Positions 4,378-37,267 of a DNA stretch of 56,706 nucleotides are shown piece by piece. Each line of letters opens with the position of its first letter. Position 1 is the stretch's first letter. Source of the stretch: an uncultured Clostridia bacterium. GTDB lineage: Bacteria > Bacillota > Clostridia > Christensenellales > UBA1242. The DNA lies in assembly GCA_944345545.1 (NCBI GenBank), contig CALVMK010000016.1:1-56706 (forward strand). Reading direction: 5' to 3'. A program made the position numbers and the translations under genes. The notes under the pieces were generated by a model, which made no database searches, was not told the origin of the DNA, and saw nothing but the letters and a program-made list of their open reading frames with translations.

Positions 4378-4379
4378 TA

Positions 4380-5189: not shown

Positions 5190-5197
5190 AATACCTC

Positions 5198-5714: not shown

Positions 5715-5741
5715 CACAATTTTAAAATTGTGCATAGTATA
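5715..5741 (+). promoter_or_regulatory. 18-bp perfect palindrome CACAATTTTAAAATTGTG abutting a CATAgtaTA element (sigma-K-like -10)
   Basis: The palindrome at 5715-5732 was read directly. CATAGTATA at 5733-5741 fits the mother-cell sigma-K -10 pattern CATAnnnTA, about 25 nt upstream of the ATG at 5767. The promoter assignment is inference. Confidence 0.3.
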
Positions 5742-5766
5742 TTACGAGATTTAAAGGAGGTAATTT

Positions 5767-6601: not shown

Positions 6602-6645
6602 AAAAAAAGACGCATTAGAAAAATAATTCTAATGCGCCTTTTTTG
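6602..6645. terminator. Bidirectional intrinsic terminator between the convergent 217-aa gene and cls
   Basis: CGCATTAGAA / TTCTAATGCG 10-bp stem, flanked by an A-run upstream and a T-run downstream. Confidence 0.72.
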
Positions 6646-6724: not shown

Positions 6725-8158
6725 TTATAACAATGGTGAAAACATTCTAAAAAATGTTTGCCCAAGTTTACTTGTGAAAGGTTTTTGTTTAAAATAAGTA
6801 ATATCTATTGGTATGGAATTTTTAATGTCTTCTTCAATAATTTTAGCACAAGATTTTAAAAATTCTTTATTAAACATAAATGCATTTATTTCAAAATTTA
6901 AAGCAAACGACCTATTATCAGCATTGCATGTTCCAACTGAAATGCACACATCATCTATCATCAACAATTTACTATGCAAAAAACCATTATATAAATAAAT
7001 TTTCACTCCACATTCAACAAGTTCTCTAGCGAATGAAAGGGTTGCTAAATAAACAAATTTTTTATCAGGTTTTTTAGGAAGCATAACAACAACGTCAACT
7101 CCACTTTTTACTGCTTGTTTTAATGCCGACATAAAAATATCATCAGGAACAAGGTAAGGTGTTTGCAAAACAATTTTCTTTTTCGCCGTTGCTATCATTT
7201 TTATATAACTATCTTTTATATAATGAACTTTACTTTCTGGCCCACTACAAACAATTTGTGTAACCACATTTCCCTTTTTTTGCATTTTAGGAAAATAACC
7301 TAAAGCCACTAATTCAGAAGAAGTAATATGCCTTTTCTTACAAAAAAACCAATCATTGAAAAAAGCATTTTGCAGTCCATAAACAGCATTGCCCTCTATT
7401 CTTAAATGAGTATCACGCCAAGGAGATAATTTTTTCTTTAGCCCCATATGGTCATCGCGAATGTTAATTCCCCCAACATAACCAATATGACCGTCTATAA
7501 CCACTATTTTTCTATGGTTTCGATAATTCATTTTAAGGTTAATTAATCTTATTCCAAACAAGGGTGGGAAAAATTCCGCAACTTCTCCACCAGCTTTTTT
7601 TAATTTTCTAAAAAATCTTCTTTTAGATCTTATTGAACCTACACTATCAAAAATTAGTTTAACCTTAATTCCTTCACGAGCCTTGTCGCAAAGAATTTTC
7701 ATGATATCCTTTCCAACCCCCTCATCATCAAATATATAATATTCCATGTTTATTGAGTGCTTAGCAGAAAGAAGGTCTGCCTTTAAAGCTTCAATTTTTT
7801 CTTTGCCAAAAGTGTAAACTTTAATATCGTTATCAAAATAAGGTAAACTTTTACAAGCCCTTTCATTAAAACTAGCTATTTCTCTTTCATTTTCAGAAAG
7901 TTCTGGCAATCTTAAAAGTTCTTCCCAAACAAAATTTTCATAAGCATCTTCATATAGAATTTTTCTTTTTAACATTCTTCTGGTTTTAACACTTAAACCA
8001 CTACCAAAAATAATGTAAAAAATGAAACCCAAAATTGGCACAAAAGAAAGAATCACAAGCCAAGATATTATAACCTCTGGCTTGCGTCTTTCTATGAACA
8101 TCATTGTGCCGATTAAAACTATGTTAACAATTAAAACAATTAAAAATGCAAAATCCAT
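6725..8158 (-). CDS. cls: Cardiolipin synthase (PLD superfamily)
   Basis: 477 aa with two N-terminal TM helices and two HKD motifs (HRKIVVIDG...GGINI and HSKLLMIDD...GTCNADNRS). Starts 14 nt after the stop of the giant ORF, with a GAAGG RBS in the gap. Confidence 0.92.
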   Translation of the reverse strand: MDFAFLIVLIVNIVLIGTMMFIERRKPEVIISWLVILSFVPILGFIFYIIFGSGLSVKTRRMLKRKILYEDAYENFVWEELLRLPELSENEREIASFNERACKSLPYFDNDIKVYTFGKEKIEALKADLLSAKHSINMEYYIFDDEGVGKDIMKILCDKAREGIKVKLIFDSVGSIRSKRRFFRKLKKAGGEVAEFFPPLFGIRLINLKMNYRNHRKIVVIDGHIGYVGGINIRDDHMGLKKKLSPWRDTHLRIEGNAVYGLQNAFFNDWFFCKKRHITSSELVALGYFPKMQKKGNVVTQIVCSGPESKVHYIKDSYIKMIATAKKKIVLQTPYLVPDDIFMSALKQAVKSGVDVVVMLPKKPDKKFVYLATLSFARELVECGVKIYLYNGFLHSKLLMIDDVCISVGTCNADNRSFALNFEINAFMFNKEFLKSCAKIIEEDIKNSIPIDITYFKQKPFTSKLGQTFFRMFSPLL

Positions 8159-8172
8159 ATACCTTCTTATAT

Positions 8173-11100
8173 TTAATTACTACTGTTTTCAGCTCTTTTT
8201 AATTCATAAGTGTAGTTATAACCTTCACCATCAATATAAAATGAAAATCCATTACGACTTAAATCTATTAATATTTGTTCTCCTTCAGAAGTTACTTCTA
8301 TACTTTTAGTATCAACGATAACATCAGCATTTTTGCGCGTAATAATGTAGCTACCATTATTTGGAACAATAATACTTGGTGAAGTGCCAGTAATAAATGT
8401 TGCATTTTCTGGAATAGCATTTTCTAACTCCAAAATATTCCCTACTACTCTTAAAATTCGAACAAATTTAAAAATAGATACTTCTTCGCCTTCTGTTACT
8501 TGGTCCATATCTTGTGTCATGTAAGAGATATAATTATTTGCTGACAAAGTTTCACTTGCAATTCCAATGTCAGTTGTGGAAACTAATTTAAACCTAACAG
8601 TTTGTCCGCCAGAAATGGCTCCACCTAACAAATCTGAAATAGCATAATCGCCATCAGCTTTAATATACACATATTTTGTAGAAGAATTATTCCCAGTTAT
8701 TGTAATTTCATAATAGCCAACTGTTAAATTAACATTATTGAATCCTACAATTAAATTAGAATTTGGCATATTAATTATATCTGTAATAAGTTTATAATAA
8801 GTTTTTCCAGAACCTTCCACTTCTTCTGTTTCAAAATTGTAGATTATTGTTTCGCCATTATCTTCTACGACCACAGAACTTATTTGGTTATTTTGAATTA
8901 AACCACTAACTTCTTTATAAACTCTAATTGTTCCAGATAAAATTGAGATTGAAGCAACGTCTATTTCTGTGTCTTGTTCTAAATAGTAGTAAGAAGATAT
9001 GTTTTCACCAACTCCTGTAATGCTATAAATTTTTCCACCTGTTAATTCAATTGTTGTTCCATCTTTTATTTCAGTTAATTGATTTACAAAATTAGTTCCA
9101 TTCAAGCCGTCAAAATATAACCAATCTTGAACTGTATCGTTTAATGTTGCTTGAATTGCTGTAAGATATTTGTATTCTATAAGCTTTTCATTATCATTAT
9201 TTGCAATAAACAGATAATCTTTAGCACTGAAAGTTTCTGGCATTAAAGAGATGTCTATTTTATTTATTACAAAATAAGATATTCTTGAATATAGTTCTTC
9301 TTGTGTTTGAGTCCCCATATCTTGACCATTTGGGGTAAAGAATTCTAGTGGTAAACTTGAAGTATTATTCATGTAAAGATAATAATAATACACTTCACTT
9401 GTTGTTGGTTTAACTTTTAAACTATAAACTTTACCTATTGAATCTTCAAATTCTAGTGTTGTGCCTTCTTTCATTATAGAAGATGTGCCAATAATTGGGT
9501 TTTGTGTTACGTCTGGATTTAAAGCTGATAAGAAATCTTTTCTGCTATCTGTTTGATAAATTGACTTATTATCATAAGCTGAACCATCAAATTCTTTAGC
9601 AATGTTTATAAATTGAACTTTAATGCTATTAGAGTTTTCAAAGCTTTCAACAAACATGTAATTTGTGTTTGGACTTATTGATTCCAATTCTGTTGAAACA
9701 GCTAAATAATTTGTTAATTTTATTTCTTGAGAAGAAGTATTCCCAATTTGGTCCATATTAAAGCTAGATAATGTTCCATTATTTTTAACAATATAGTTCT
9801 CTTTAGTTAGTCCATTTGAACCATTATATTCTAATTTATAGAATGAGTATGTTGGTATATTACTACCATCAGCATTATAAATATAGTTTACATTCTTTAT
9901 ATAGGTGTAATTATCTGCGTCAGCACCATTAGGAACAATTTTATAACTACAATTTGAATTATTGTTATTTTTTGTGAAATTTATTAAATCGCCAATGTTA
10001 ACCAATGATTGATCGCTTATTATTGGACTTAATGAGTTTTCAAATGTTTCTATTCCACCAATTACAAAACTCTTTTTATATTTTAATTGAACATTTATTA
10101 ATTTTATGTACGAAGCAGGGTTCACAGAATTGTTTTTTTCTTCTGCAACAAGAAGCCAACTGTGGTTTTTCCCAACTTCAGTGTTTGCATTGTCTATGCT
10201 TGGTGTTATGTAGCCTTCACTTTCAAAATCTATATTTTCAAATATTGATTGATTTAAAACTAACCCAGTGAAGACAGTTTCATATCTTGTTATTGATTCA
10301 TAAGCATCTTCATTTGCAAACGCATTTTCAAGGTCTAAAGCCAAGCCACCAATTTCTACTGCTGTGTCTGAAACATATCCAACATATTTTGAATACTGTT
10401 TGTCGTCCCCAATATAAGCATCTACCTTAAACACTGCTATTTCATCAGTATTAAAATCTGCGTTTTCTGAACCTATGTTCATATCGTCTATCACAATGCT
10501 TCCACTAGCTGTTGTGCTGTAATTTGTTATGATAAGTCTGTAGTCATAATTTAAACCTGTGATGATTTCATTTCCATAAATTGATTTTAATGCCAAATTA
10601 ATTTTATAATTGTAGTTTGATATATTGGTTTCATCAATTGAATAAGGAGTTGAATCTTCACCTTCAGCACTTAAATTATTTAAAGTTAAATGATAACCAT
10701 TTGCATCAAACTTAAACTTGAACTCTGCACTATCAATAACCGTTCCTGAAGTTTTAGAAACAGCTTGAATTATTGCACTAACTTCTTGATTTTTTAATAT
10801 TGTTCTATCAGTTATTGTATACAAATCTATGTTTAAATTAGTAGTGTTTTGCGTGTCTGCAGTAATTGAAGTTGAATCTTTAAAAAGTGTTATTAAGTTG
10901 TAATTATATTGCCATTTTTCAATATTTCCACCTGTTGTTCTATCGGGGAAAAGCCCATTTAGTTGAATAACCTTATCATTAGGTGTTTCAACTTCATAAG
11001 AACAACTTTCATATAAAACTTCAACAACTTGCCCTTCACTATCAAGCCCTGTTGACCTTCTTTGAACTGTGTATACCCCAACAGATGGAGCTGTAAGGGT

Positions 11101-14100
11101 GTTCTCAGTGAGCACTAATGCAACAGTGCCCACCTCGATTGAATTTGCTTTATCATCATCTTTGCCAACATAGTCTACATAAGCTCTTACAGAAACCACA
11201 ATAGCATTAGTTTTAACATCAAAACCTGCATCAGTTATGATGTTGCCATTTTGGTCTATTGTTGCAAGACCTGCACCAAAACCTTCAATAGTGCTATCTG
11301 TGTTTATTTCAAAGAAAATTTTATTGCCTTGACCATAATAAGAGTTTAACAATGAAACAACATTTCCATCTTTGCCTACAACTTGATAATTTTCTGTCCA
11401 TAAACTAAGTGGTATTGTGTAAATTATTCCATTTCCTTCATCTTTTGGCTCGCAAGATGCAGCATCAATTTGCTTATAACGCAATGTTCCTGTGTTACCG
11501 TTTGTATCAACACCATAAGGATTTGGTGTTACGGTGTAACCAATACTGCTTGCATTGTAGCTATCGCTTTTTGCAAATTTTGTAACATACCCTTTAAAGA
11601 TTGAAGACAAAGTAGTTTTTGTGTTTACATTAAATTGTTGAACTGATTTAATATCTATTTTATCGCTTGCAGCAATATCATTATTTTCGTCAGCAGACAA
11701 TTCTGTAATTTGGAAATCATTTATTGTTAATGTTGAAATTTTATTATCTTCATCATAACTTGAAGAACTACCGTTATATTCAATTTGTGAATTAGGATTA
11801 TAATGTGTTATTTCTATTTTATATTTTCCACTAATTTCATTTTGAGTGTAAGTTGTTTTGTTTAAAATTGTTGATAGTGAAACATGAACATAATGAGAAT
11901 AGTTTTCTTTAACTGTAATCACATAAGGTGTTGTTGTTAATTTCTCGTTATTAGCATTATAAACTTCAAAATAGATATTTTTATTTGTTGAATTAGCAAA
12001 GTCTGCACTTATCAACAAGCTTATTGTGTCAGAATAAAGCGTTGTTGCTTTTACTTTTAACATATCAGTGTTAGATAAAGGTTTATCGCTTAATTCAAAG
12101 CCCCAAACATCATTTAAACTCAATTCATTTCTTAACGATTTAACTTGAACTCCATCATAATCTAATATGAAACCAACTTGTTTTACTCCTTGCGTAGAAT
12201 CTTTCACATTTAATGTAACAGTTTTTTCTTCGTCTGATAATGAACTATTTAAAGATGCAATATTTATTGTGCTTAACATTACCTTTTTATCTTTATTTAT
12301 TAAATTAGTAAGGTTTACTGAATTTTTAACACTGTAATTTTCATTTTGTTCTTTATATAAATAATTTATATCAAACTCTTCTGGTAAATAGTCAAATGAT
12401 TCATCAACATCAACGTTTTCAAGAACTACAAAGTTTTGGCTGTTAAATTCAAGTTTATAGTTGTTTTTGCTTGAAGCTATTGCAGTGTATGTTACATTTT
12501 CTCCATCTTTTTTGCCATAAACAAATGCAACTTTTTCTTCAGTTGTTGTTCCTCCAGTTACTAAACTCTTGTTAACATCTAATTGTAAATAAAGTTCTTC
12601 TTTTGTAGTATTTAAACACATTATCTTATAAGCTGTTGTGCCGTTTACAGTTTCTTTATATGTGTATAAAATTGGCGTATTATTTTCGCTTACGCTTCCC
12701 GTTATACTCATTTCTGTGATTTTAATATATGTACCTTCAGCTTGTAAATCGTATAAAGAGAAGTCTACGCTTTCAAAGTTTTTGAAATCACTTAAAAATA
12801 CTATTTGTCCATCTCCACCATTTAATTCACTGTTATGAATTGTTGTGTTTCCTGTGATAGAAACAGAACCTTGTCTTTTAATTTCAACGGATATGTTAAG
12901 GCTTCCACTTTCTAAATTAACGCCAGATAAATCTATTGAATAATCTTTATTCCCAACTGCAGAACTGCCAAGTGAATTACCAGATTTTATATCTGAAATG
13001 CTAATAAAGTTAGAAACATCAAAATTTTGATTATCTAAAACATTATTTGATGTTGCTGGCGTAACAGAAACTGCATAACGTTGTTTTAAATAAATACTTG
13101 TAGAAATTAATACTTCTTCTGTTTCACCATTTTTATCAGCTTCAAGCATAATCTCTAATGTAAGCGGAATTGACATTGCTCCATCATAGAATTTGGAATC
13201 CATAACATTAAAGGTTGCTCTGTTTTGAACGCCTTCAGTTTTTACTAAAGCCCCTGTGTCTTCATTGCTTGAATTTAACGCTTTAAATGTAGATATTGGG
13301 TCTCCACTATCTGAAAGATTATTGTAATAGCTAACTAGCACAAAGTAGTCTGCATCTAAATTGCTGAGATAAGACTGTCTTTCAGCTACGGCTGTGTTAA
13401 TATAGTCATCATAATCTAACAATCTTATTGAAGAGCCTTCCCAAATCTCTGAACCTTGAACTTGCGCCCCAGTTGAATCTATAATTTGAACAATGTTTGT
13501 GCTAGATGTTTTTGCTTTTAATGTAACATAATATCTTAATGTGTATCCAAAAACATCAGTTATGTCAATATAACCTTCAATATCGCCATAATGTGCAACA
13601 GTGCTTCCTTCAACAAATTGAACAACATTGTTTCCTGTGCTTGCCATTTTTAAATAGTTTTTCAAATTTGAACTTAATGTGTAAGTAAAGTTAGTAGCTT
13701 GGTTAGTTAAATTTGTTCCGTTTTTATGTTTTATAACAACACGACTTGAATCGCCAGACTTTGCTATTGTTAATGGCAAGGTTGTTATGCTGTCACCTTG
13801 TCCTACTAATGTGCTATCTTCATAATACAAGTAAAGCGGTGTTGATTGAGAGTTTTGAGTTGATGTAGCACTTTCTGCGTTAGTTAAAGTATATTGCCAA
13901 TCAGGTAATATTTTTATCATTATATAAGCAGAAGTTGTTTGAACGTCATTGTCTGCTATTTGAACAGAATAAGTTACCTTGTAAACAACATAATTGCCTT
14001 CATTTTCTGCTCCATCTGCTAAAATATTGAAATCGTAAGTTATTCCCCCATTTTCTGTTATTTGTTGAATTGGGGCTACCCTTGATGGTGGATAGTTATA

Positions 14101-17100
14101 TTGTCCACCTACAGTTGCAAGGTATCTTAACACATAATTATCGCCAGAACCAACAGCTGGGAAAGGAATATTGCCATTTTTTTGGTCTTCAAATTGTGTG
14201 TAGTCATAATCTAACGTAGCAACTAAATATAGAGATATGCTTATACTTCTTGTTGTGTCTTTTGTGAAATAATCTTGGGTGTAATTTTGCCCGTTATATT
14301 TAGTAATTTCCCAAATATTATTTTCCCCAGCAACCCCTAAAATTCCTAAGCTTGTTTCATTTGCTTCCAATGTTTCCATAAAGCCAGATGAAACAGTTTT
14401 ACCATTACCAATTTTAAAATCAAAAACAGCTTTATAATTATAGGTTACAAAATCATTTACATAGCTAAGGTTAAAAGTTATTGTTTGTATTCCCGAAGAT
14501 GCTTCGCTAAAATCAAGTTCTGTTTCTCCCATTGTGCTGTAACCATTATTTGTAGCATCTAAAGCACTTGCATATTTTGAATAATCAACAAGGTCGCCTC
14601 TGTAATACACACTTATTCTTGTTTTAACTTCGCTAGTTCCAACGGTTGCTATATCACTGAATAACAAAGGTTGATTATTGTTTGTAATTGTGAAATACTT
14701 ATCAAAACTGTTATCTCCAGTTGCATAAGGGTCTATTCTCTCACTAGGAATACTGGTTGCGTTAGAGAAATTTAATAAGAGTTTTATTGTTTGTCCAGCA
14801 TAGGTTTTATCTAAAGTTATGCTATCTAAGAATGTTGAACCATTATCTATAGATATTTTAGCGTTTTCTTTTGCTGTAATTACTGTGTTATCAGCAAGTG
14901 TTGATTTACCTTGGAAAGTTAAAAGTTGATAACTACTTGAGAAGATTTTTTGTTGTTCAGCTGATAAAATGAATATTTCCATCATTTTGCTATCAGTAGA
15001 AACTTCTGTATCGCCAAAATAATTTATTTCATAAGAAAGCAAGTTCCCTATATTTTTGTCCAGTCTAACACTATAAGTCTCACGTTCTATTCCGTCAACT
15101 TTAATTATAAATGATAACACAATTGAATTCACGCTTGCCCCGCTAGTCTTCCAACTAAGCGTTATAGAAGTTGAATTTAATTTGCCACTTTCATCAATTG
15201 AATTTGTTTCCATGTAACTTTTCCAGCTTGTACCAGAAAGAACTATTTCTATTGATTCTTCTGTTAAACTAATGTCTTCGCCATCTTTATTTTTAACTAC
15301 AACTCTGTTTGCATCTCCAAATAAAGCCTTATCAGCAAAGTTTAATACAAAACTATTTCCTTCTTCAGCAGAAAGGTAAACATATTCTACATCTCTAGCC
15401 TCTCCACTAGCGTTTGGATAATTTAGTGTTACAGTTTTATCTGGCACAACTTCAAATTGAACATAAGCGTTATATTCAACACCAGATATTGTTATTGTGG
15501 CTTGAATAATAACTTTTGTTGCACTTGAAACAGGTTTTGTATCAACGGTTATCTCTGGAGCTTCGCCATCAACGTAAGTTTTATATAAACTTTCTATTGC
15601 TTCGCCACCTTCTAAAACATATAGTCCTAATTCATTATCCGTTTCTGTGCTTCCGCCATAATATTTATCGCCTGTGGTTATGATAGTAAACAAAGAATTT
15701 TCTTCTGCTACAATTTCTCCAACATGGCTTGTTGCTAAAACTTGACTTGCTACAATGTTTTTACCTGTTTCATTAGAATAAATTATTTCATCTATTACTA
15801 ATGGTTCTTGCGCAGAAGTGTTAGTTACAATGTTTGGATATACTGTTAAAATAAAGTTATAAACAAATTTTTCTTCCCCAGCACTTGTTAATGGCAATTT
15901 TAATGTAATGCTGTAAGTTTTGCTAGACTTTAACTGTGGTAATGTTAAGTCGGCTAATGTTGAGCCTTCACTTCCTTCTTTCACAGCAAGTGTAATATCG
16001 CCAGATTTTCCACCTGTTGATAAATCTATAACTTCAATTTCTACATCATTCCAATCAGTAACTTGAATTGGGCTACCGCCTTCTTCTATACTAAGTATTT
16101 CGTTTAAATTTAATGTTCTATCGGAGTAAGTATAATAGGTTGCATCTTGTTTATATAAGTAGTTAGCTTTTTCATTTAGTGTGGCTGAAATGTTAGATTT
16201 AAACACAACATCTATTTCTTTATATGCCGTATTTTTTCCATACAATGTGTATAACACAACTTTAAAAGTTAAATCACTAACTAATTTCTCGCCTTCTTTA
16301 AGTGAAATTATCCCACTTGTTTTATCAAAATCTAACTTATCAATTTGGTTTACATCATAAATGTGATATCTAAGCAAATCACTCTTAGTTACTATTCCAC
16401 CGCTAACAACAGCTAAAGTAACTCTGTCGCTCATGCTTAAAACATAGTTTGTGTCTATTTCAATTTCCGATTCATTATAATTGCTGTTTAAATCATCAGT
16501 TTTAAAAGCTAATTCTTCATAAGCATAGTTAACAATTATTTTGTAAAGTGCAGAAGAACCAATATAATTTTCCCCTAAATATGCTTCTGCTCTAACAACA
16601 ATTGTAAGCATAGAACTTGGCAAATATTTTATTGTTAAATCACCATTTTCAGTTAACCCCAAGAAACCTTCAATGTTTGTGCCCGTTATTTCAATGTTTC
16701 CCACAAATAAACTGTCAATATAAAATTTTAAATCAGGTTCTGGTTTTACATCTTCATAAACACCATTTGTTTCTACTTGAAGAACAAATCTTTTACCTGC
16801 TTCATAATTAGGTATGTTTTCAGTAAAGGTTTCATTCAAATTCAAGTGAATGTCGCTATTAGATTCAAATTCTAAATATTCAGCAACATTTGCTCCAACT
16901 GGATTAGCTCCGTAAATATATGGATAATAAACATTTAATTTTGCACTTGGAACTATTTTTATTCTGTAACTAAAAATTTCAGTTTGAGTGGCTTCAACAT
17001 AACAAATAATCTTTATAAATTTTTCAGTGCCATAAGTATAGGTTGATAAAATTCCAGTTGAAGCATTAAATGTGGCATAGGCATTTGGATTTAATGTTCC

Positions 17101-20100
17101 ATCTTCATTTTCAATCTTAAATGAAAAATTCGTTTTATAATAATCTGATATGCCATACCCATCTATTTCAAATAGGTTATAAAGGTCATATTCTTTTCCG
17201 CCGTCATAACTATCATAAATGTTTTCGTCTTCAATATATTGTTTATTATTAATCAAATAAATATTTTTATTAACTTTATTAATTAAATTTGCATAATCTG
17301 CTGTTTGATTTACATCGTTTGAAGTTTTATATTTAACATATTCATATTCACCCGGCAAAATGAGAGCATTAAATTGAATATCCCCAACACCATTTTGTGT
17401 TATTGTAAATGTAGATTGATTAACATTTGATATGCCTGTATTGATTGTTATACTGTTATCATCTGTTGAATAAATTGATGGATTTCCTACAAAAGATAAA
17501 CTATATTCCCCTACATTATCTTCATGCGTTAAAGATTTGCCAGTTGAGTCTTTAAATATTCCTAATATGCTATCAAAATTATATTTATAACCAGAAACTA
17601 AAACTAAATGAAGATTATCATTTTCTGTTTCTAGATTATAATTTGCAAAAGCAGTATGAGAAAGTACTCCGTCAGCAGTTGAAATTTTTGTGTTGTTTTC
17701 TGCACTTATGTCTGGAGTAACAACATTAGGAGAAATTGTTAATTGCATTTTTTCAATTAAAATTAAATCACCACTGCCAACTGAACCATAAAGTATGTAA
17801 AGTTGTAATGTTTCTTTTTCAATCAATTCTTTTAAAATTTTGATTTTTGCGCCAGAGTTTTCATCATTTATTATTTCAAATGTACCATATGTTTCATCTG
17901 TTATTATAGAATTGCCATCAAAAGAAAGGTAAATTGAACTAAAATTGGTTAAAGCGTCCCCTTTGTTAGCAATGTTCTTTATAAGACCAATAATTGAAGA
18001 ATCTGTTCCGTAAATAGATATTTCTTCATTCACCCCTGTTGTTAGATAGTGGGTGCCTAAATTTAATGTGCCATCTTGTTCGTAAACACAATTCTTTTTA
18101 TCAACGCTTACATTTGCATTTACATTAAAGTAAAGATTTTGCTTAAACCCATATCCTACATTATTAGGATCGTTTCCAGAATATAATGTAATAATTTGTT
18201 GTCCAATTCTGTCTGCACCAAAGTACAATGTTAAAGTTTTAGAGTCGTCTGATATAATCGCACTAGATAACCCATTTTCTAAATTAATAGCATTACCGTT
18301 TTCATCACATACATTAATTAACCTTGTTGAACCAAATTCATGTTCCCACTTTAAGTCCACAATTATATTATTATCTGAGTATACTCCTCTATATACAGGG
18401 TTATCACCAACACTTTCAGCACCAGATTGAATAGTGGTCTCATTTATCGTAGAATTAGCTAAAACTATTGCAGGCTCAATTGTAACATTAATAACTTGGT
18501 TTATTGAAGATATGCCTGGAACTGTTGCTACTAATTTAAAACTATAAGAAGTTCCAAAATTTTCTAAAATCTCAATGTCGCCGTTTAATTCTATCCATTC
18601 GTTATTTGTTTTTAAATCTGGAGAACTAAACTTGGTTACTTCATTTAAAACATATTGTTGTTCATCTAATGTGTAATATATTTCAAATATTATATTAGAA
18701 CCTATTAAATCTATAGTTCTTGCTTTTACCCCTAAAGTTTGAATATTAACCGTCATTTTAGAAGAATCATATATTTCGCTTACACCATCATAGTCATTTT
18801 TGTCGAACAAATATTCCTGACTTTGAGAAGTTTTATCATAAACTTCATAATATTTTATTCTGCTCACATATCCGTTTTGCGAGCCATTATTAAAATAAAG
18901 GGTTGCCGTTGGATATTCACTAATTAAAGCAGAAGATTTTGTTGATGTTGAAACATTTACTTCAAAATTTCCATCTTCATCTGGGGCTGTAACACTGGCG
19001 TTATTTACAATGTCAACTCCATCTGTAGTTTGCATTATAATGTTTCCATATTTATCATAAACAACAACATTATATCGCCCAGTTGTTTCATCAAAAATTG
19101 TTGCTTCCAAATCTCCGTTAAAATTATTTAAACTGTAGGTTGTGCCAATCTCAGTTGCTATTTTTGTATCGCTTACTGGTGTAGTATCCACTCCACTAAT
19201 TTCAATTTTTTCTACAATTCGATTGTCAACTTCTGTTTTGATAATTGACTCTTCTTTTCCAAACTCAATTTTTGCAGGATTTCCGTCATAAACTTCAAAA
19301 TTCTTTGTTAAAGCTGTATTGTTATAGTCTAAAGCATTTACAGACACTGTTTTACTTTCTGTTTTTTGATATGTCAACTCGAACTTTAGTTCTATATCTT
19401 GAGAAACATTCCTAGCAATCATAGGAATATAAATTGCTTTAACTCCATTGCCTAAATCTCTAATATTACCAGCCGAAATGTTTGTTTTAGTGTATGTTAT
19501 AACACTTGTTGGGACTCCTGTTGAAGCATTAGAAAACTGAATATTTATTAAATTGCTGTTCCATGCATTTATAAATATATCTTGTTCAACTGCCTGTTCC
19601 TTTTCTTCTATTCCAGAATAAAATCTTATTTCCAAAACAAAGGCAGGGTCTTGAGTGTTATTTCCTTTAAAAGCATATTTATTGCTATAACTATCATCAT
19701 TTTGGTTTTTTACGCCATCTATATCATAGTTTAAATTGTAATCTATTACGTTTTCTGCTGTTATTTCACCTTTTATTTCGTTTAATGTAATGCTATCAGT
19801 AATAGCAAGCACTTCAACTTTTTTAAGTGTTTTTGTTATTGTAAACTCAAGTGGTTGATTGCTTAATTCATTGTCTATATTTTTTACAATTGTTACTATT
19901 TGATATTCCCCTTGATTTAAAATAGGAGCACCAAGATAATCTGTTTGAATAACAACAGCAATAACATTAAATGTGCCTACGCCAAGAGTTTCAAACTCTC
20001 CATCAATGCTTTCTATTTCAGCAGCTGATGTTTTTGTTCCTAAACCATAACTAGCAAACAGCGAATCAAAATTAAACAAACTATCATCAGTTGCCACTAA

Positions 20101-21609
20101 GCCAGAAATCATTTTTGTTATGTCTTCACCTTCAACAGTTGTATAGGCTATATATTTAACCGTTGTGTAAGAGCCTTGTGTTATGTTTATGTTGTTGTAA
20201 AGATTGTAACTTTGATGAACTATATCTTCTTCATTTTGCGCATCTTCATAAGTTAAAGTTATTGGGGCTTCATTCTTCCATGTAAGTTTTGTTGTTTCAA
20301 TTCCCGCAGTAGACCAATAAGGTGTTTTTTTGACGGCATCTTCATCTTCTATGATTCCCTTATCTCCAAATATTCTTACTTCTATATTGAAATAAAAATC
20401 TGGATTATTAACTGCAACCGTCCAATAACTTTTGTTGTAATCAGTAAGATTTATTTGTGGGTAATAATATGTTTTAATTTCTCCGTCTTCCTTGACAACA
20501 ACAGAATCACTGTATTCAACAATTTTAACTTCATCTCCTGTTGAGCCTTCTGGGTATAAAATTCTAATACCCATGTCTGCAATTTTATACGCCATGTCTG
20601 CACTTGTATCTGTTGATAAAACATTTATTCCAAGTGAATTATCATTTTCATTGTTAGAATTAGCATAAATTACGCTAGTTTTATTAAACGGAAGTTGCTT
20701 TCCGCTGGTTTGAGAAATTTCAAATCCTGAAATTGTTTGTGTAACAAATGACACATTAATTTCAGCAGATTTTCCAAGTGTTTCATTAGAAGCCTGTGTA
20801 ATCAAATCACCTTCTTCTTCATACATAGCTTCATATTCTTGTTGCAACTGTGAATTTTTAAAACAATAAGCCTTGATAGTTATAGGAATTTCTGTTTCTG
20901 TAGGTTTTAATGCTTTAAATGTTCTTTTGCCGTTTACATAACCTAAGTCTTGAATATAATCATTAACATTTCCTTGAGCAATTGTGAAAGCATAATAAAC
21001 AGATTTTTGCTCTGTTGTGCTTCCAAACATATATGCACTGCTTTCTGGAGTGAACTGTGGCTCTACTGTAAAGGTTGAATTAACAGCAAAAGTGTCCGCT
21101 TGATTTCCGCTAGACTTTGCAACAACATTTAAAGAATAAACAGGAACATCTATGTTGATTGTGGTTTCCGCTTGAGTAACTCCAACTACATCTGTTCGTG
21201 CAACAATAGTAGAACTTCCACCCTTGTTCCAATTCCCTTCTGTTTCATCATAATATTCTTGAGAAACAATAACCTTAAAAGGCTCACCAATGTTTGCATA
21301 TTGTGGTATGCTTATAACACCATTAGACAACCTTCCATTGCTAACAGATATACTTTGATTTTTAAAAGAAAGTGTTACTCTTTTTTCAGTTACATTTTGA
21401 GTTGATGTTTGCACTTCTATTTCAAAAGAAACATTTCCATCATTATCTAATGAGCCAACTTCATTATAAACGCTTTGCTCAAAAAAGATATTTTCAGGTT
21501 TAACTTTTTCTTGGTCAAAATAACCCACTGCATACAAAATGCCGTAAGTTATTCCAAAAACTCCAATTAATGAAAAAAATACAATTAAAAAAATTTTAAA
21601 AAATCTCAT
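8173..21609 (-). CDS. Giant (about 4478 aa) membrane-anchored, repeat-poor extracellular protein, probably beta-rich by composition
   Basis: Uninterrupted 13.4 kb reading frame in DNA where AT-rich stop codons are otherwise frequent. The track ORF starts at a TTG at 21654. The ATG at 21609 has GGAGA 6 nt upstream and lies downstream of the predicted transcription start, so it is preferred. One N-terminal hydrophobic anchor (FFKIFLIVFFSLIGVFGITYGILYAVGYF). The rest is Asn/Thr/Ser/Ile/Tyr/Glu-rich with few Cys and no C-terminal LPXTG. Confidence 0.9.
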   Translation of the reverse strand: MRFFKIFLIVFFSLIGVFGITYGILYAVGYFDQEKVKPENIFFEQSVYNEVGSLDNDGNVSFEIEVQTSTQNVTEKRVTLSFKNQSISVSNGRLSNGVISIPQYANIGEPFKVIVSQEYYDETEGNWNKGGSSTIVARTDVVGVTQAETTINIDVPVYSLNVVAKSSGNQADTFAVNSTFTVEPQFTPESSAYMFGSTTEQKSVYYAFTIAQGNVNDYIQDLGYVNGKRTFKALKPTETEIPITIKAYCFKNSQLQQEYEAMYEEEGDLITQASNETLGKSAEINVSFVTQTISGFEISQTSGKQLPFNKTSVIYANSNNENDNSLGINVLSTDTSADMAYKIADMGIRILYPEGSTGDEVKIVEYSDSVVVKEDGEIKTYYYPQINLTDYNKSYWTVAVNNPDFYFNIEVRIFGDKGIIEDEDAVKKTPYWSTAGIETTKLTWKNEAPITLTYEDAQNEEDIVHQSYNLYNNINITQGSYTTVKYIAYTTVEGEDITKMISGLVATDDSLFNFDSLFASYGLGTKTSAAEIESIDGEFETLGVGTFNVIAVVIQTDYLGAPILNQGEYQIVTIVKNIDNELSNQPLEFTITKTLKKVEVLAITDSITLNEIKGEITAENVIDYNLNYDIDGVKNQNDDSYSNKYAFKGNNTQDPAFVLEIRFYSGIEEKEQAVEQDIFINAWNSNLINIQFSNASTGVPTSVITYTKTNISAGNIRDLGNGVKAIYIPMIARNVSQDIELKFELTYQKTESKTVSVNALDYNNTALTKNFEVYDGNPAKIEFGKEESIIKTEVDNRIVEKIEISGVDTTPVSDTKIATEIGTTYSLNNFNGDLEATIFDETTGRYNVVVYDKYGNIIMQTTDGVDIVNNASVTAPDEDGNFEVNVSTSTKSSALISEYPTATLYFNNGSQNGYVSRIKYYEVYDKTSQSQEYLFDKNDYDGVSEIYDSSKMTVNIQTLGVKARTIDLIGSNIIFEIYYTLDEQQYVLNEVTKFSSPDLKTNNEWIELNGDIEILENFGTSYSFKLVATVPGISSINQVINVTIEPAIVLANSTINETTIQSGAESVGDNPVYRGVYSDNNIIVDLKWEHEFGSTRLINVCDENGNAINLENGLSSAIISDDSKTLTLYFGADRIGQQIITLYSGNDPNNVGYGFKQNLYFNVNANVSVDKKNCVYEQDGTLNLGTHYLTTGVNEEISIYGTDSSIIGLIKNIANKGDALTNFSSIYLSFDGNSIITDETYGTFEIINDENSGAKIKILKELIEKETLQLYILYGSVGSGDLILIEKMQLTISPNVVTPDISAENNTKISTADGVLSHTAFANYNLETENDNLHLVLVSGYKYNFDSILGIFKDSTGKSLTHEDNVGEYSLSFVGNPSIYSTDDNSITINTGISNVNQSTFTITQNGVGDIQFNALILPGEYEYVKYKTSNDVNQTADYANLINKVNKNIYLINNKQYIEDENIYDSYDGGKEYDLYNLFEIDGYGISDYYKTNFSFKIENEDGTLNPNAYATFNASTGILSTYTYGTEKFIKIICYVEATQTEIFSYRIKIVPSAKLNVYYPYIYGANPVGANVAEYLEFESNSDIHLNLNETFTENIPNYEAGKRFVLQVETNGVYEDVKPEPDLKFYIDSLFVGNIEITGTNIEGFLGLTENGDLTIKYLPSSMLTIVVRAEAYLGENYIGSSALYKIIVNYAYEELAFKTDDLNSNYNESEIEIDTNYVLSMSDRVTLAVVSGGIVTKSDLLRYHIYDVNQIDKLDFDKTSGIISLKEGEKLVSDLTFKVVLYTLYGKNTAYKEIDVVFKSNISATLNEKANYLYKQDATYYTYSDRTLNLNEILSIEEGGSPIQVTDWNDVEIEVIDLSTGGKSGDITLAVKEGSEGSTLADLTLPQLKSSKTYSITLKLPLTSAGEEKFVYNFILTVYPNIVTNTSAQEPLVIDEIIYSNETGKNIVASQVLATSHVGEIVAEENSLFTIITTGDKYYGGSTETDNELGLYVLEGGEAIESLYKTYVDGEAPEITVDTKPVSSATKVIIQATITISGVEYNAYVQFEVVPDKTVTLNYPNASGEARDVEYVYLSAEEGNSFVLNFADKALFGDANRVVVKNKDGEDISLTEESIEIVLSGTSWKSYMETNSIDESGKLNSTSITLSWKTSGASVNSIVLSFIIKVDGIERETYSVRLDKNIGNLLSYEINYFGDTEVSTDSKMMEIFILSAEQQKIFSSSYQLLTFQGKSTLADNTVITAKENAKISIDNGSTFLDSITLDKTYAGQTIKLLLNFSNATSIPSERIDPYATGDNSFDKYFTITNNNQPLLFSDIATVGTSEVKTRISVYYRGDLVDYSKYASALDATNNGYSTMGETELDFSEASSGIQTITFNLSYVNDFVTYNYKAVFDFKIGNGKTVSSGFMETLEANETSLGILGVAGENNIWEITKYNGQNYTQDYFTKDTTRSISISLYLVATLDYDYTQFEDQKNGNIPFPAVGSGDNYVLRYLATVGGQYNYPPSRVAPIQQITENGGITYDFNILADGAENEGNYVVYKVTYSVQIADNDVQTTSAYIMIKILPDWQYTLTNAESATSTQNSQSTPLYLYYEDSTLVGQGDSITTLPLTIAKSGDSSRVVIKHKNGTNLTNQATNFTYTLSSNLKNYLKMASTGNNVVQFVEGSTVAHYGDIEGYIDITDVFGYTLRYYVTLKAKTSSTNIVQIIDSTGAQVQGSEIWEGSSIRLLDYDDYINTAVAERQSYLSNLDADYFVLVSYYNNLSDSGDPISTFKALNSSNEDTGALVKTEGVQNRATFNVMDSKFYDGAMSIPLTLEIMLEADKNGETEEVLISTSIYLKQRYAVSVTPATSNNVLDNQNFDVSNFISISDIKSGNSLGSSAVGNKDYSIDLSGVNLESGSLNISVEIKRQGSVSITGNTTIHNSELNGGDGQIVFLSDFKNFESVDFSLYDLQAEGTYIKITEMSITGSVSENNTPILYTYKETVNGTTAYKIMCLNTTKEELYLQLDVNKSLVTGGTTTEEKVAFVYGKKDGENVTYTAIASSKNNYKLEFNSQNFVVLENVDVDESFDYLPEEFDINYLYKEQNENYSVKNSVNLTNLINKDKKVMLSTINIASLNSSLSDEEKTVTLNVKDSTQGVKQVGFILDYDGVQVKSLRNELSLNDVWGFELSDKPLSNTDMLKVKATTLYSDTISLLISADFANSTNKNIYFEVYNANNEKLTTTPYVITVKENYSHYVHVSLSTILNKTTYTQNEISGKYKIEITHYNPNSQIEYNGSSSSYDEDNKISTLTINDFQITELSADENNDIAASDKIDIKSVQQFNVNTKTTLSSIFKGYVTKFAKSDSYNASSIGYTVTPNPYGVDTNGNTGTLRYKQIDAASCEPKDEGNGIIYTIPLSLWTENYQVVGKDGNVVSLLNSYYGQGNKIFFEINTDSTIEGFGAGLATIDQNGNIITDAGFDVKTNAIVVSVRAYVDYVGKDDDKANSIEVGTVALVLTENTLTAPSVGVYTVQRRSTGLDSEGQVVEVLYESCSYEVETPNDKVIQLNGLFPDRTTGGNIEKWQYNYNLITLFKDSTSITADTQNTTNLNIDLYTITDRTILKNQEVSAIIQAVSKTSGTVIDSAEFKFKFDANGYHLTLNNLSAEGEDSTPYSIDETNISNYNYKINLALKSIYGNEIITGLNYDYRLIITNYSTTASGSIVIDDMNIGSENADFNTDEIAVFKVDAYIGDDKQYSKYVGYVSDTAVEIGGLALDLENAFANEDAYESITRYETVFTGLVLNQSIFENIDFESEGYITPSIDNANTEVGKNHSWLLVAEEKNNSVNPASYIKLINVQLKYKKSFVIGGIETFENSLSPIISDQSLVNIGDLINFTKNNNNSNCSYKIVPNGADADNYTYIKNVNYIYNADGSNIPTYSFYKLEYNGSNGLTKENYIVKNNGTLSSFNMDQIGNTSSQEIKLTNYLAVSTELESISPNTNYMFVESFENSNSIKVQFINIAKEFDGSAYDNKSIYQTDSRKDFLSALNPDVTQNPIIGTSSIMKEGTTLEFEDSIGKVYSLKVKPTTSEVYYYYLYMNNTSSLPLEFFTPNGQDMGTQTQEELYSRISYFVINKIDISLMPETFSAKDYLFIANNDNEKLIEYKYLTAIQATLNDTVQDWLYFDGLNGTNFVNQLTEIKDGTTIELTGGKIYSITGVGENISSYYYLEQDTEIDVASISILSGTIRVYKEVSGLIQNNQISSVVVEDNGETIIYNFETEEVEGSGKTYYKLITDIINMPNSNLIVGFNNVNLTVGYYEITITGNNSSTKYVYIKADGDYAISDLLGGAISGGQTVRFKLVSTTDIGIASETLSANNYISYMTQDMDQVTEGEEVSIFKFVRILRVVGNILELENAIPENATFITGTSPSIIVPNNGSYIITRKNADVIVDTKSIEVTSEGEQILIDLSRNGFSFYIDGEGYNYTYELKRAENSSN

Positions 21610-21658
21610 TTTGTTTCTCCAAGATTTATTTAGATTATTTGCAATATTAGACAAATTA

Positions 21659-21687
21659 ATTATATATTTTACATTTTTTTAAGTCAA
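21659..21687 (-). promoter_or_regulatory. Consensus sigma-A promoter for the giant gene
   Basis: Minus strand reads TTGACT (21687-21682), a 17-nt spacer, then TATAAT (21664-21659). Confidence 0.62.
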
Positions 21688-21739: not shown

Positions 21740-21768
21740 TTGACAACTTTACGCCTATGTGTTATACT
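21740..21768 (+). promoter_or_regulatory. Near-consensus extended -10 sigma-A promoter for the 861-aa gene
   Basis: TTGACA (21740-21745), 17-nt spacer ending in TGt, then TATACT (21763-21768). It overlaps the first codons of the track ORF start at 21759, which argues against that start. Confidence 0.62.
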
Positions 21769-21791: not shown

Positions 21792-24377
21792 ATGGAGTTA
21801 GGTTTTTTTGTTCCTGTTAAAAGTGCTCAAAAAGGCGATAATTCAGTTGTTGGAAATCAAGCAGTTATATTTAATGACAAATATAACGAAACTATTTTTA
21901 TAAGCTCAAGAAAAGAAGATGAGCCTAGAATTTTAGTAGATTTAAACAAAAAAACAATGTCAATAGACTTTTCACATTGCTTAAATGGCTATGAAAGGTT
22001 AATGAGTGTAAATGGAGCTTCTAGTTACCACATAGGTAATGGTATTTTTACGTTTCCAATTAAAAGCGTAACTATTGACGGAAAAGAAAATTTTTCATTT
22101 GAAATTGATAGCATTAAACATACATTTGAAGTTGGTTCGCAATCTTTTTCAATAACCGACCAAAGCAAAAATAAAACAGTTTTAAGCTCTCTAACAAGCG
22201 ATTTTTATAATGTAAATTTTAGTCAAGATGTTTTAAAAAATTTAACACCTTCTAAAAAATGCACTTTGCCACAAATTAGAGTAACAGCTTTACCAATTCA
22301 AATGGCAGAATTTTTAGAAAAAAATAAAGAATTAGCCACACAAAGCGGACTAGAAACTCTTAACATTAAAAACATTCATCTTGTTAAAATAAATAACAAT
22401 ATTATGCTTGCTCGTGGCAACAGTTTAGTTCCTATTGCTGATGCAAAAAACATTAATAGTTCTGTTTTTTTTGCAAAAGTTGGTGAAGATTATCATGTAA
22501 CCTTTGGAATGAGTTTAAATGCTTCAGGACACATAGTAGATGCAGTTGGGGCTTCAAAACTCACAGAACAAGATGCAACTGAATTAAAGGCTTTTTTAGG
22601 TCATACTGGCAAAATTCTTAGCCAAGATGAATATGCTTCTTTAAAAATTCAAGCAAAAAAACTTACTGTTTATAATGAAACAACAAAAAAAGCTGAAACT
22701 ATTTCTCCAATGCCACAACCACAAAGAAATTTTGAGAGCACAGAACAAACAAATATAGAGAGCGAAAATCAACCCGCTTCAAACAATTTACCAACATTAC
22801 AAGTGCACGCTCATGATAAAAACAAACATGACGATGATAATGGAGATAGCGAACATGGTTTGGCAATAATGGAAAACACTCAAACAAACCAAAATTCAGC
22901 TGACACACAAGTTGAGCCTCCACCTTTTGAAAACGCTCCAGAGGCTTCCACTGAAGCTAACACTCCTAACGCAGAAAATAACGCTTCTGAAGAAAATTTG
23001 CCACCAATTACAGATGATGTTCCAAACCCAGAAGCTTCTGCTCAACCTGAAGTTACAAATTCTCAACAACCTTCAGCTACTCAAACCGCTCAAGCAAGCC
23101 CAGCAAGGTCAGCTCCTAAAAAAGATTTTAAAAAAGACGCAGCTAAAATAAGTGGAGTTCTTTCTAAATTCTTAGGCTTTGGGCTAGTTGTTGCAGCAGT
23201 GGCAACACCAGGGGCTATTGCTATGTTAGCGGTAGGCACAACATTTTTTTTAACAGGATATACATCTGACGATTTTGTTGATATTGTAGAAGCACTTTTA
23301 AGATATTCTCAACGACCAAGAGCTGACCGTCAACCAAGACAACAAACAATGCAAAACGCTCAGCAGGCTCAAGAACAAAATCTCGAAAACGCTCAATCGC
23401 ATGAACAGAATTTGGAACAAACTGACGACCTTGAAGGAAATAATCCTTCTCAAAACGAAGAAATGCTCGCACTAGAAGGTAAAGAAAAATTATTGCTTAC
23501 AGGAAGAGACTTAGAATTAGAAAATAGTGATGATGACCAAAAGCTTTTAACAGGAAAATCACTTGAGTCCGCTACTAATGATGAAGAAATTTTTGATAAA
23601 GAAACAAAAGATTTAAAAGATGCAATTCAAGATAGTTTTAAAAAGTTGTCTGAACTTCATAACAACACCGTTAATGAAGAACGTAAAGTTATTGAAAGAA
23701 CGGAAAAGGCTTTACAACAAGAACAAACAATATTAGACCAAAAAAGTGTTGAATATAAAAACATTTATGAAAACCCAAGTTCAACAGAAGAACAAAGAAA
23801 TGTTGCTGCTGAAGGGTTAAAAAACATACAAGCTCAAAAAGAACAATTAGCTATTAAAAAAGCAACTTTTGAAAAACAAAAAGCGGAAATAGAAAAAATT
23901 GTTAATGAAGAATTTAAACCTTTAGTTTTAGATTTAGAAAAACAACAACATGATATTGAAGATAGCATTAGCGACATAATAACACAAGAAAATGGCGGAA
24001 CAAAAGTTGCTGATGGAACATATTTTTATGAAGGTTTTGACTCTTCTGCAAGAGAACGCAAAAAACAAGAAAAACGTAACAAAGAACAATTAGAACAGGC
24101 TTCTGCCCAATTATTAAACGAAGAACTTCTTGAAGAAGATGCTAAAGCTGAAAAAGATGAAATTGAAAATGATAAACAAACAAAAACATCTTCATTAGAA
24201 GAAGACAAAGCAAAACTTAAAGATAAAATGCTTGACCTTAAACAAAAACAAGATAAAATGCTAGATAAAGAAAAAGGTCCTTATGCAAAAATTAAAGGTG
24301 TTGTTGAAAAAATTAAAGGTCTTTTTAAAAGTAGTTCTCATACTCAAAACAACTCTAACGAACAAAATTTTGATTAA
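21792..24377 (+). CDS. Hypothetical 861-aa protein: globular N-domain, Pro/Gln/Asn/Glu-rich linker, internal hydrophobic hairpin, long charged C-terminal region
   Basis: ATG at 21792 is preceded by AAAGGAGAAAAT. No N-terminal signal peptide. Hydrophobic stretch ISGVLSKFLGFGLVVAAVATPGAIAMLAVGTTFFLTGY in mid-protein. The C-terminal ~350 aa are E/K/Q-rich and look coiled-coil. Confidence 0.8.
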   Translation: MELGFFVPVKSAQKGDNSVVGNQAVIFNDKYNETIFISSRKEDEPRILVDLNKKTMSIDFSHCLNGYERLMSVNGASSYHIGNGIFTFPIKSVTIDGKENFSFEIDSIKHTFEVGSQSFSITDQSKNKTVLSSLTSDFYNVNFSQDVLKNLTPSKKCTLPQIRVTALPIQMAEFLEKNKELATQSGLETLNIKNIHLVKINNNIMLARGNSLVPIADAKNINSSVFFAKVGEDYHVTFGMSLNASGHIVDAVGASKLTEQDATELKAFLGHTGKILSQDEYASLKIQAKKLTVYNETTKKAETISPMPQPQRNFESTEQTNIESENQPASNNLPTLQVHAHDKNKHDDDNGDSEHGLAIMENTQTNQNSADTQVEPPPFENAPEASTEANTPNAENNASEENLPPITDDVPNPEASAQPEVTNSQQPSATQTAQASPARSAPKKDFKKDAAKISGVLSKFLGFGLVVAAVATPGAIAMLAVGTTFFLTGYTSDDFVDIVEALLRYSQRPRADRQPRQQTMQNAQQAQEQNLENAQSHEQNLEQTDDLEGNNPSQNEEMLALEGKEKLLLTGRDLELENSDDDQKLLTGKSLESATNDEEIFDKETKDLKDAIQDSFKKLSELHNNTVNEERKVIERTEKALQQEQTILDQKSVEYKNIYENPSSTEEQRNVAAEGLKNIQAQKEQLAIKKATFEKQKAEIEKIVNEEFKPLVLDLEKQQHDIEDSISDIITQENGGTKVADGTYFYEGFDSSARERKKQEKRNKEQLEQASAQLLNEELLEEDAKAEKDEIENDKQTKTSSLEEDKAKLKDKMLDLKQKQDKMLDKEKGPYAKIKGVVEKIKGLFKSSSHTQNNSNEQNFD

Positions 24378-37266: not shown

Positions 37267-37267
37267 A

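Follow-up and report, generated by a model that had tools for sequence, protein, structure and literature searches.

The window analysed here is positions 1 to 56,706 of contig CALVMK010000016.1 of an uncultured Clostridia bacterium (assembly GCA_944345545.1), 56,706 nucleotides (nt) in all. Our subject is one very large gene on its reverse strand, which we call the giant gene, together with the genes on either side of it: cls, encoding a cardiolipin synthase, downstream, and a divergently transcribed partner gene upstream. The open reading frame (ORF) occupies 8173..21654 on the minus strand, which is 23.8% of the window, and counts 4493 codons from a TTG or 4478 codons from an ATG at 21609. 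With the ATG as start, which the evidence given below favors, the coding sequence is 8173..21609 (stop codon TAA at 8175..8173) and the product has 4478 amino acids (aa), a calculated mass of 497 kDa and an isoelectric point of 4.3. A first-pass annotation had described a single frame of about 13.4 kb and about 4478 aa filling nearly a quarter of the window, and our analysis bears this out.

How do we know that so long a frame is a gene? Over this stretch each of the five alternative frames is interrupted by 276 to 595 stop codons, about one per 8-16 codons, and at about 30% GC the open frame is too long to have arisen by chance. It contains zero TGA codons and is therefore open whichever genetic code is used. 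Moreover, an independent metagenome assembly (L021) carries the gene intact, with 4477 aa and 99.3% nucleotide identity to the window copy. The two proteins differ at 47 residue positions, 3 of them within two in-frame indels. Of the differences counted between the two genes, 49 are synonymous and 47 non-synonymous, for a dN/dS of 0.25. Relatives in many unrelated metagenome-assembled genomes (MAGs) and contigs are likewise single intact ORFs of 4008-4605 aa, the sole broken copy (L001) lying on a contig with 2.4x coverage. The giant ORF is a genuine, vertically inherited gene under purifying selection. An assembly artefact or pseudogene is ruled out by the open frame, the intact relatives and the dN/dS of the L021 pair, and the sequencing or assembly errors that the first-pass annotation had named as a possible refutation do not split the frame, which is intact in independent assemblies. 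Cargo of a mobile element or phage is ruled out by the housekeeping context and by a GC content equal to that of the flanks.

The protein carries a calculated net charge of -292. Serine, asparagine, threonine and isoleucine make up about 9% of residues each and tyrosine 6.6%, in agreement with the Asn/Thr/Ser/Ile/Tyr-rich composition noted earlier, and there are 8 cysteines in 4478 aa. Its one hydrophobic segment is aa 1-30 (21520..21609, minus strand), which consists of a basic N-terminus, MRFFK, a transmembrane helix and a juxtamembrane G-x-F, and which is predicted to be a signal anchor with the N-terminus inside and the C-terminus outside (N-in/C-out). AlphaFold2 places a single continuous helix at aa 2-27. 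The flank before the helix is basic, as MRFFK here and as long K/R-rich N-termini in remote homologues, and the flank after it is acidic, so that the N-in/C-out orientation fits. On this pattern the segment probably stays uncleaved as a membrane anchor. A lipoprotein is ruled out, as no cysteine follows the L-A-G motif. A regular-expression search of the whole protein for the sortase motifs LPxTG, NPxTG, LPx[AS]G and LAxTG found none, the C-terminus (...ELKRAENSSN) is polar, and the RTX motif GGxGxD was not found anywhere in the protein. A Pfam scan gave no domain at threshold, including wall-binding, SLH, CWB2, DUF5776, Big_1/2/3/5, Cadherin-like and DUF11 families, and an NCBIfam scan gave no match. 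The picture drawn at first pass, of one N-terminal hydrophobic anchor and no LPXTG or choline/SLH-type wall anchor, thus holds under motif and domain searches.

What lies between this anchor and the C-terminus is a long chain with no recognizable sequence repeat. BLASTP of the protein against itself returned no internal repeat at E<=10, Tandem Repeats Finder and a DNA repeat search on the gene returned trivial matches only, and when five individual modules (defined below) were compared by hhalign with the full family profile each matched itself only; the absence of exact internal repeats, previously judged by eye, is thereby confirmed. Hidden Markov models (HMMs) of single tiles gave a weak excess of marginal matches along the protein, none of them individually significant (best E 2.5e-4 at Z=1, 67 tiles). 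An AlphaFold2 model of aa 1-1190, built on a 57-sequence family alignment, has a mean predicted local distance difference test (pLDDT) score of 84.8 and consists of the helix followed by about eight consecutive all-beta modules, with boundaries, read from the strand pattern, at approximately 38-157, 158-290, 291-415, 420-595, 596-775, 778-890, 895-1047 and 1082-1190, an average of about 140 aa. The first beta-sandwich, D1 (aa 38-157, 21139..21498), ends in V-x-V-D-V-P-V, is modelled at pLDDT of about 90-97 and is the best-conserved of the predicted extracellular modules. About six more beta-sandwich modules span aa 158 to about 1050 (18460..21138), with pLDDT mostly 80-95, and an eighth, less certain module (aa 1082-1190 or so, 18040..18366) follows a low-confidence loop.

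A Foldseek search of this model against the PDB gave 154 matches at E<=0.001, led by long immunoglobulin (Ig)-like arrays with E down to 1e-20. The top match was a nuclear pore complex chain, and ciliary central-apparatus chains, the Sap S-layer assembly domain, cadherins and desmogleins, alpha-2-macroglobulins, complement proteins and contactins were also found, with E between 1e-20 and 1e-8. The TM-scores are low, 0.08-0.14 for the eukaryotic arrays, because flexible multi-domain chains match in the pattern of arrayed domains only, and the matches establish the fold class of the model, Ig-like tandem arrays, and not homology. A PDB sequence search returned no significant match for the whole protein or for four tiles of the family profile, three of them from aa 1051-3600. 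As modelled, aa 38 to about 1050 thus form a tandem array of Ig-like beta-sandwiches, and to this extent the diverged beta-sandwich chain suggested at first pass from composition is supported; beyond the modelled first quarter such a chain is likely. The region from aa 1051 to 3600 (10810..18459), a presumptive stalk, is conserved and aligns collinearly with all full-length relatives, the confident model stopping before aa 1191. The hypervariable distal region, aa 3601-4478 (8176..10809), is the presumed tip. A model of aa 3290-4478 on an 8-sequence alignment is beta-rich, but at pLDDT 44, and below 50 over most of aa 3770-4290, it is unusable. If the module density of the modelled part were to hold throughout, the protein would have about 30 modules and, at an assumed 4-5 nm per Ig-like module, an extended length of about 120-150 nm.

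To define the family we searched 1.84 billion protein cluster representatives exhaustively with a HMMER profile of aa 1-1070. The search found 61 cluster representatives, of which 12 are 2528-4605 aa long and the remainder fragments; all but one (60/61) align from their own N-terminus or near it. The carriers of the giant family are all uncultured Clostridia/Christensenellales, and all ten giant loci found in GTDB species genomes are in uncultured Clostridia MAGs; the named carriers are one Candidatus Caccopulliclostridium gallistercoris and one Christensenellales, and one comes from sheep colon. The outlier is a metagenome protein of 842 aa (P0054) which shares with the giant family only D1, aa 38-140 matching its residues 553-650. 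Ahead of this module P0054 has repeats of the Flg_new and BspA-type LRR_5 kinds as well as an S26 signal-peptidase domain. Since P0054 is otherwise unrelated, the D1 module occurs outside the giant family too. Flg_new and BspA-type leucine-rich repeat domains are usually extracellular.

Other searches returned little. Among the giant homologues scanned, none had a Pfam family at threshold. The exact sequence of the giant protein has no record in the look-up made for it, and literature searches turned up no description of the family. A homologue index returned only P0001 for aa 1-1000 and nothing for aa 3600-4478, weak negatives for giant proteins because relatives of more than 3000 aa that exhaustive HMMER had found (P0002, P0003 and others) went unreturned. 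The first-pass annotation had allowed that domain searches might reveal an already well-described adhesin family; none matches in Pfam, NCBIfam, the PDB or the exhaustive HMMER search.

The alignment with 17 relatives shows a clear gradient. Most conserved is the transmembrane segment, aa 1-30, with 33-93% identity (50-93% in 15 of the 17). Identity is 33-78% in D1, 14-69% in modules D2-D3 and 10-55% over aa 416-3600 (15-55% over aa 416-1190), and it falls to 0-34% over aa 3601-4478, where the closest species reaches 34% and 14 of the 17 relatives are at 12% or less. In sequence, conservation thus declines steadily from the helix to the hypervariable last 880 aa or so, and conservation of the helix to this degree is unusual for a mere export signal.

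The gene is preceded by a promoter of sigma-A type at 21659..21687 on the minus strand, TTGACT (21687..21682) and TATAAT (21664..21659) being separated by a 17-nt spacer and matching 11 of the 12 consensus positions. The pattern TTGAC[AT]-N16-18-TATAAT stands 33-159 nt upstream of the giant ATG in 19/19 loci examined, and the 826 kb of locus sequence contain just 28 instances of it on the two strands together. The promoter does not vary among seven loci even though their giant proteins share only 33-60% identity. Transcription is expected to start at about 21652, which would leave a 5' untranslated region (UTR) of about 43 nt (21610..21652) with the ribosome-binding site (RBS) GGAG at 21620..21617, 7 nt before the ATG at 21609. 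This 5' UTR, TTGTCTAATATTGCAAATAAT..TAAATAAATCTTGGAG, is almost invariant in the window, L002-L005, L012 and L019, again with giant proteins 33-60% identical. It is more conserved than an RBS requires and may be a regulatory or mRNA-stabilizing leader. Translation from the TTG at 21654 is rejected, since this codon lies where the transcript should begin and lacks conservation. All homologues begin at the ATG, with MR(F/Y)(F/L)K; the textbook TTGACT-17-TATAAT promoter had earlier been taken to favor the ATG, and the conserved promoter and leader agree. A sigma-A consensus promoter in all 19 loci speaks for vegetative rather than spore-specific expression, and the gene is probably strongly expressed in vegetative cells.

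The gene after the giant gene, at 6725..8158 on the minus strand, encodes 477 aa with PLDc_N, PLDc and two PLDc_2 stretches (two PLD/HKD domains) and scores 461.3 bits against TIGR04265 (bac_cardiolipin), for which the cut-off is 290; by this measure it is a bacterial cardiolipin synthase of the ClsA type. The junction with the giant gene, 8159..8172, is 14 nt long and carries the cls RBS AAGAAGG, as had been noted before. In the window no terminator-like site was found between the two genes, and an intrinsic terminator with an 18-bp stem and a T-run, which can serve both strands, follows cls at 6603..6644. We scored the adjacency of giant gene and cls in the 12 lineages with a visible 3' flank and found it in nine (the window with L021, L012, L005, L019, L007, L020, L018, L016/17 and L009), with a junction of about 12-30 nt in seven (L005, L007, L012, L018, L019, L020 and the window with L021) and of about 200 nt in two. 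The linkage persists down to 23-26% identity of the giant protein, and the cls orthologues diverge together with the giant gene, at 98, 84, 80, 74 and 50-54% identity. Thus the earlier suggestion of co-expression gains from the want of a terminator between the genes, the strong one after cls and the adjacency in 9/12 lineages, the last of which also answers the concern that the pairing might be absent in relatives.

Judged by the gene orders compared, the step from giant gene to cls is the most persistent linkage of the neighborhood, despite rearrangements on both sides. The ancestral order was likely tig-clpP-clpX, giant gene, cls, one or two genes, and rpmG-secE-nusG-rplK-rplA. The gene upstream of the giant gene alternates between clpX and the partner gene: in the clade of the window that side has been replaced by dnaI-dnaB, an M1 peptidase, a hypothetical gene, a rubrerythrin-like gene and the partner gene, which faces away from the giant gene. 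The genes past cls vary too, including in the window, where the link from cls to rpmG-secE-nusG seen in relatives is broken, indicating a local rearrangement. In L013, which has no cls beside the giant gene, we observed that the giant gene is flanked by genes for a Flg_new protein (3901..5814, 637 aa) and a Flg_new_2 protein (19325..20206, 293 aa), both with Listeria-Bacteroides repeats. Such repeats usually mark surface proteins.

The partner gene (21792..24377, plus strand) is divergent from the giant gene and encodes 861 aa. A promoter-like site before it (21740..21768, plus strand), TTGACA-17-TATACT with a TG extension, stands back to back with the giant promoter. The protein begins with a domain of about 310 aa and continues with a linker rich in acidic residues and proline. 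A hydrophobic segment of about 38 aa follows, with Pro-Gly at its center, which by its sequence is a possible membrane hairpin, and the tail is a coiled coil. The gene stands beside the giant gene throughout the clade of the window (L001-L006, L019, L021), and in L009/L010 the gene in its position has the same architecture and is a remote homologue (hhalign probability 88.7%, E 2.6e-6). The partner protein has no Pfam or NCBIfam match, a profile search of the PDB gave coiled-coil noise only, and its N-terminal domain returned nothing from the homologue index, a weak negative since that index misses known giant relatives.

As to the host, the window encodes Mur ligases, MraY, FtsW/SpoVE, a DnaB_2 replication-initiation protein with a DnaI-like ATPase, and a GerA operon, and these genes indicate a walled member of the Bacillota that probably forms spores; such a host is presumably monoderm. 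The operon, a complete one for a GerA-type germinant receptor, lies at 29766..33567 on the minus strand and comprises GerAA (32131..33567), a GerAB-like permease (31031..32134) and GerAC (29766..31034). Between it and the ftsW/spoVE-murD-mraY-murE cluster, beside a tRNA-Asn gene (34992..35066), is a small island at 34992..40400 that looks like the remnant of an integrated element, with genes for a DUF6291 protein (35572..36255, minus strand), two HTH_3 regulators (36495..36893, minus strand, and 37631..37954, plus strand) and a large serine recombinase (37957..39468, plus strand). Further on, a cluster at 48507..52177 (minus strand) encodes a class II tRNA synthetase, for which the best Pfam family is histidyl-tRNA synthetase, mini-RNase III, a 188-aa ORF, a SpoU-type rRNA methylase and a sigma-70-family factor that we take to be sigH-like. 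The gene order of this cluster is as known from B. subtilis.

What kind of protein could this be? The reading that we favor, with somewhat better than even confidence, is a strongly expressed vegetative surface fiber with a conserved base and a variable tip. The helix would be held in the membrane as an N-in/C-out anchor, the conserved proximal modules would cross the peptidoglycan wall, and the chain of Ig-like modules would form a long acidic fiber whose fast-evolving distal 880 aa or so would meet the environment, either by adhering to other cells or to glycans of host or food, or by shielding the surface. The product of cls, translated from the same transcript, would supply cardiolipin. 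Most concretely, this lipid might support Sec-dependent export of a 4450-residue passenger, an extreme Sec substrate; in E. coli cardiolipin stabilizes SecYEG and is needed for optimal translocation stimulated by the proton-motive force (PMC7156725; bioRxiv 10.1101/202184). Alternatively it might surround the conserved helix, which has in MRFFK a cap at once basic and aromatic. The two roles are speculative.

Several observations weigh against this reading or parts of it. The link between cardiolipin and Sec is known from E. coli and not from Clostridia. In three of the 12 lineages (L008, L013 and L014/15) the adjacency to cls is absent, and the transmembrane helix is equally conserved in lineages without it; coupling to cardiolipin is therefore not obligatory in cis, and the pairing could be inherited gene order. 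The confident model covers aa 1 to about 1050, about one quarter of the protein, and no binding domain is recognized in the tip because the model of the tip failed (pLDDT 44). The A/L-x-G at aa 27-29 is a possible weak signal-peptidase I site. Lastly, where a 13.4 kb gene has a consensus promoter, an abundant structural coat is a better fit than a rare adhesin.

The last of these points leads to the rival that we take most seriously while still thinking it unlikely, namely that the protein is an abundant coat or scaffold of the envelope, be it an S-layer-like lattice, a brush or a spacer between wall and membrane, whose Ig-like modules pack laterally instead of binding a ligand. Very high expression is suggested by the promoter, which is close to consensus in all lineages; the gene is vertically inherited and has a core-genome site between housekeeping clusters (tig-clpP-clpX upstream, rpmG-secE-nusG downstream); and the Foldseek matches include the B. 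anthracis Sap assembly domain and ring- or lattice-forming Ig arrays. However, Pfam revealed no domain for S-layer anchoring, whether SLH, CWB2 or another, and the family's variation in length, from 3267 to 4605 aa, and its hypervariable distal region are unlike a ruler or a lattice subunit; an S-layer subunit of 497 kDa would, to our knowledge, be unprecedented. If instead the N-terminal segment were a cleavable Sec signal peptide, the mature protein would be released or held non-covalently at the wall, like the A. kunkeei giants found in culture supernatant, which have Sec signal peptides and no transmembrane segment (PMC12863079). The glycine at aa 29 is nearly invariant across homologues and follows A/L-x, so that the stretch looks like a weak cleavage site of the AxA type, and Gly19 and Gly23 could interrupt the helix between an h-region and a c-region. 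As a rule signal peptides change rapidly in evolution, whereas this segment, at 50-93% identity in 15/17 relatives, is the most conserved of the protein. Moreover, AlphaFold2 gives one unbroken helix over aa 2-27, position -3 is mostly leucine in homologues, and Pfam detects no wall-binding domain that would retain a released protein, so that we regard secretion as improbable.

The two other alternatives have far less in their favor. The first-pass annotation listed an adhesin, a cell or spore surface fiber and an envelope scaffold as candidates, and of these the spore-specific part finds little support. A fiber of the spore surface or exosporium, made during sporulation, would agree with the GerA-type operon and spoVE/ftsW in the window, by which the host probably sporulates, yet the promoter has the sigma-A consensus in 19/19 loci and is not of sigma-E/K/F/G type, the neighbors are housekeeping genes, and an N-in/C-out anchor is ill-suited to deposition on the spore from the mother cell; we consider this very unlikely. 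It is hardly to be credited, finally, that the protein acts as a polymorphic toxin or in contact-dependent inhibition, in the manner of WapA or Rhs, its variable C-terminus being a toxin domain. A hypervariable C-terminus on a conserved stalk is what such a protein would show, but Pfam finds no toxin, Rhs/YD or LXG domain in the giant protein or the family members scanned, the downstream gene is the conserved cls or an unrelated gene and never a small variable immunity ORF, and the variable part is about 880 aa and beta-rich where a swapped cassette of 100-150 aa would be expected.

Returning to the surface fiber, one may ask whether its neighbors belong to it more closely. The giant protein, the co-transcribed cls and the divergent hairpin/coiled-coil protein might make up one envelope module, for lipid-dependent export and anchoring of a fiber of about 0.5 MDa in a monoderm cytoplasmic membrane, with the helix sitting in locally made cardiolipin and sortase, SLH and CWB anchoring bypassed. 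We offer this as a doubtful proposal. If true, the fiber would also be the first Ig-like megaprotein described from bacteria whose modules are each unique and have orthologues throughout an order.

How does the giant protein compare with known systems? In its working logic it is most like the RTX adhesins of Gram-negative bacteria (MpIBP, LapA, SiiE; PMC5550230, PMC7493085), acidic megaproteins which also have a proximal N-terminal hold, an Ig-like extender and distal C-terminal specificity, and yet it fails those of their defining tests that were applied, its presumably monoderm host included. RTX adhesins are exported by type I secretion via C-terminal GGxGxD repeats, which the giant protein does not have; they are retained in an outer-membrane pore, whereas it would be retained by a predicted cytoplasmic-membrane helix; and their extender repeats are near-identical, whereas its modules are mutually dissimilar by BLASTP, hhalign and DNA repeat finders. 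Pfam and the exhaustive HMMER search give no sequence homology to RTX adhesins. The best structural matches are eukaryotic, non-repetitive Ig arrays, which like the giant protein are very long Ig-like chains unrecognizable as sequence repeats. The top Foldseek match, the nuclear pore complex chain, we take to be gp210. The gp210/Pom152 chain is attached to its membrane by a single helix. However, the gp210 array and the hydin-type arrays of the ciliary central apparatus differ in domain of life, compartment and function, the match is not evidence of common descent, and the likeness of architecture is surely convergence.

Closer to the host, the Gram-positive giants, among them Giant1-5 of A. 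kunkeei, LPXTG and serine-rich-repeat adhesins and Ebh, are likewise proteins of Bacillota, 3000-10000 aa long, and elongated stalks implicated in adhesion or aggregation. Giant1-5 have a Sec signal peptide, an N-terminal beta-solenoid (Giant1-4), internal repeats and C-terminal DUF5776/SH3b-like domains (PMC12863079). The Gram-positive giants, with a cleaved signal peptide, a binding domain at the N-terminus, sequence repeats and attachment at the C-terminus, have a polarity opposite to that found here, where the anchor is N-terminal, the tip C-terminal, and neither repeats nor DUF5776 are present. The giant protein falls outside the Giant1-5 family: exhaustive HMMER with aa 1-1070 returned its own family only, and the N-terminal model shows the beta-sandwiches of an Ig array. 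With the S-layer proteins Sap and EA1 of B. anthracis there is a match to the six-domain Ig-like Sap assembly region (9g93, 6qx4; E about 1e-10 to 1e-11), both sides are Bacillota, monoderm in B. anthracis and presumably so here, and each would be expected to have a strong promoter; but Sap and EA1 have N-terminal SLH wall anchoring, and the giant protein has no SLH domain, is about five times longer, and has a predicted membrane anchor and a hypervariable distal end. Other Gram-positive giants are attached C-terminally via LPXTG or a transmembrane segment. The sortase-anchored ones have a C-terminal sorting motif, a hydrophobic stretch and a basic tail, and the giant protein has neither the motif nor a C-terminal hydrophobic stretch.

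Thus the giant protein founds a new family, dark to Pfam, NCBIfam and PDB sequence searches, within what sequence and model place as a known kind, the giant Ig-like surface protein. Its unusual traits are the strong conservation of its N-terminal membrane helix, the dissimilarity of all its modules, and a conserved consensus-promoter operon with cls. The well-studied giant surface proteins that we know of are built of repeats, and it is the wall or the outer membrane that anchors them. We supply the seed alignment and the high-confidence model for a new domain family. More generally, giant surface proteins shape attachment, aggregation and recognition among gut bacteria, and here the gene appears to be core and strongly expressed in poorly known Clostridia of the animal gut, at a cost of 13 kb in a small, AT-rich genome. 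The family is therefore a testable case of how a monoderm cell exports and holds a passenger of about 4450 residues, and of whether membrane lipid synthesis may be tuned to it.

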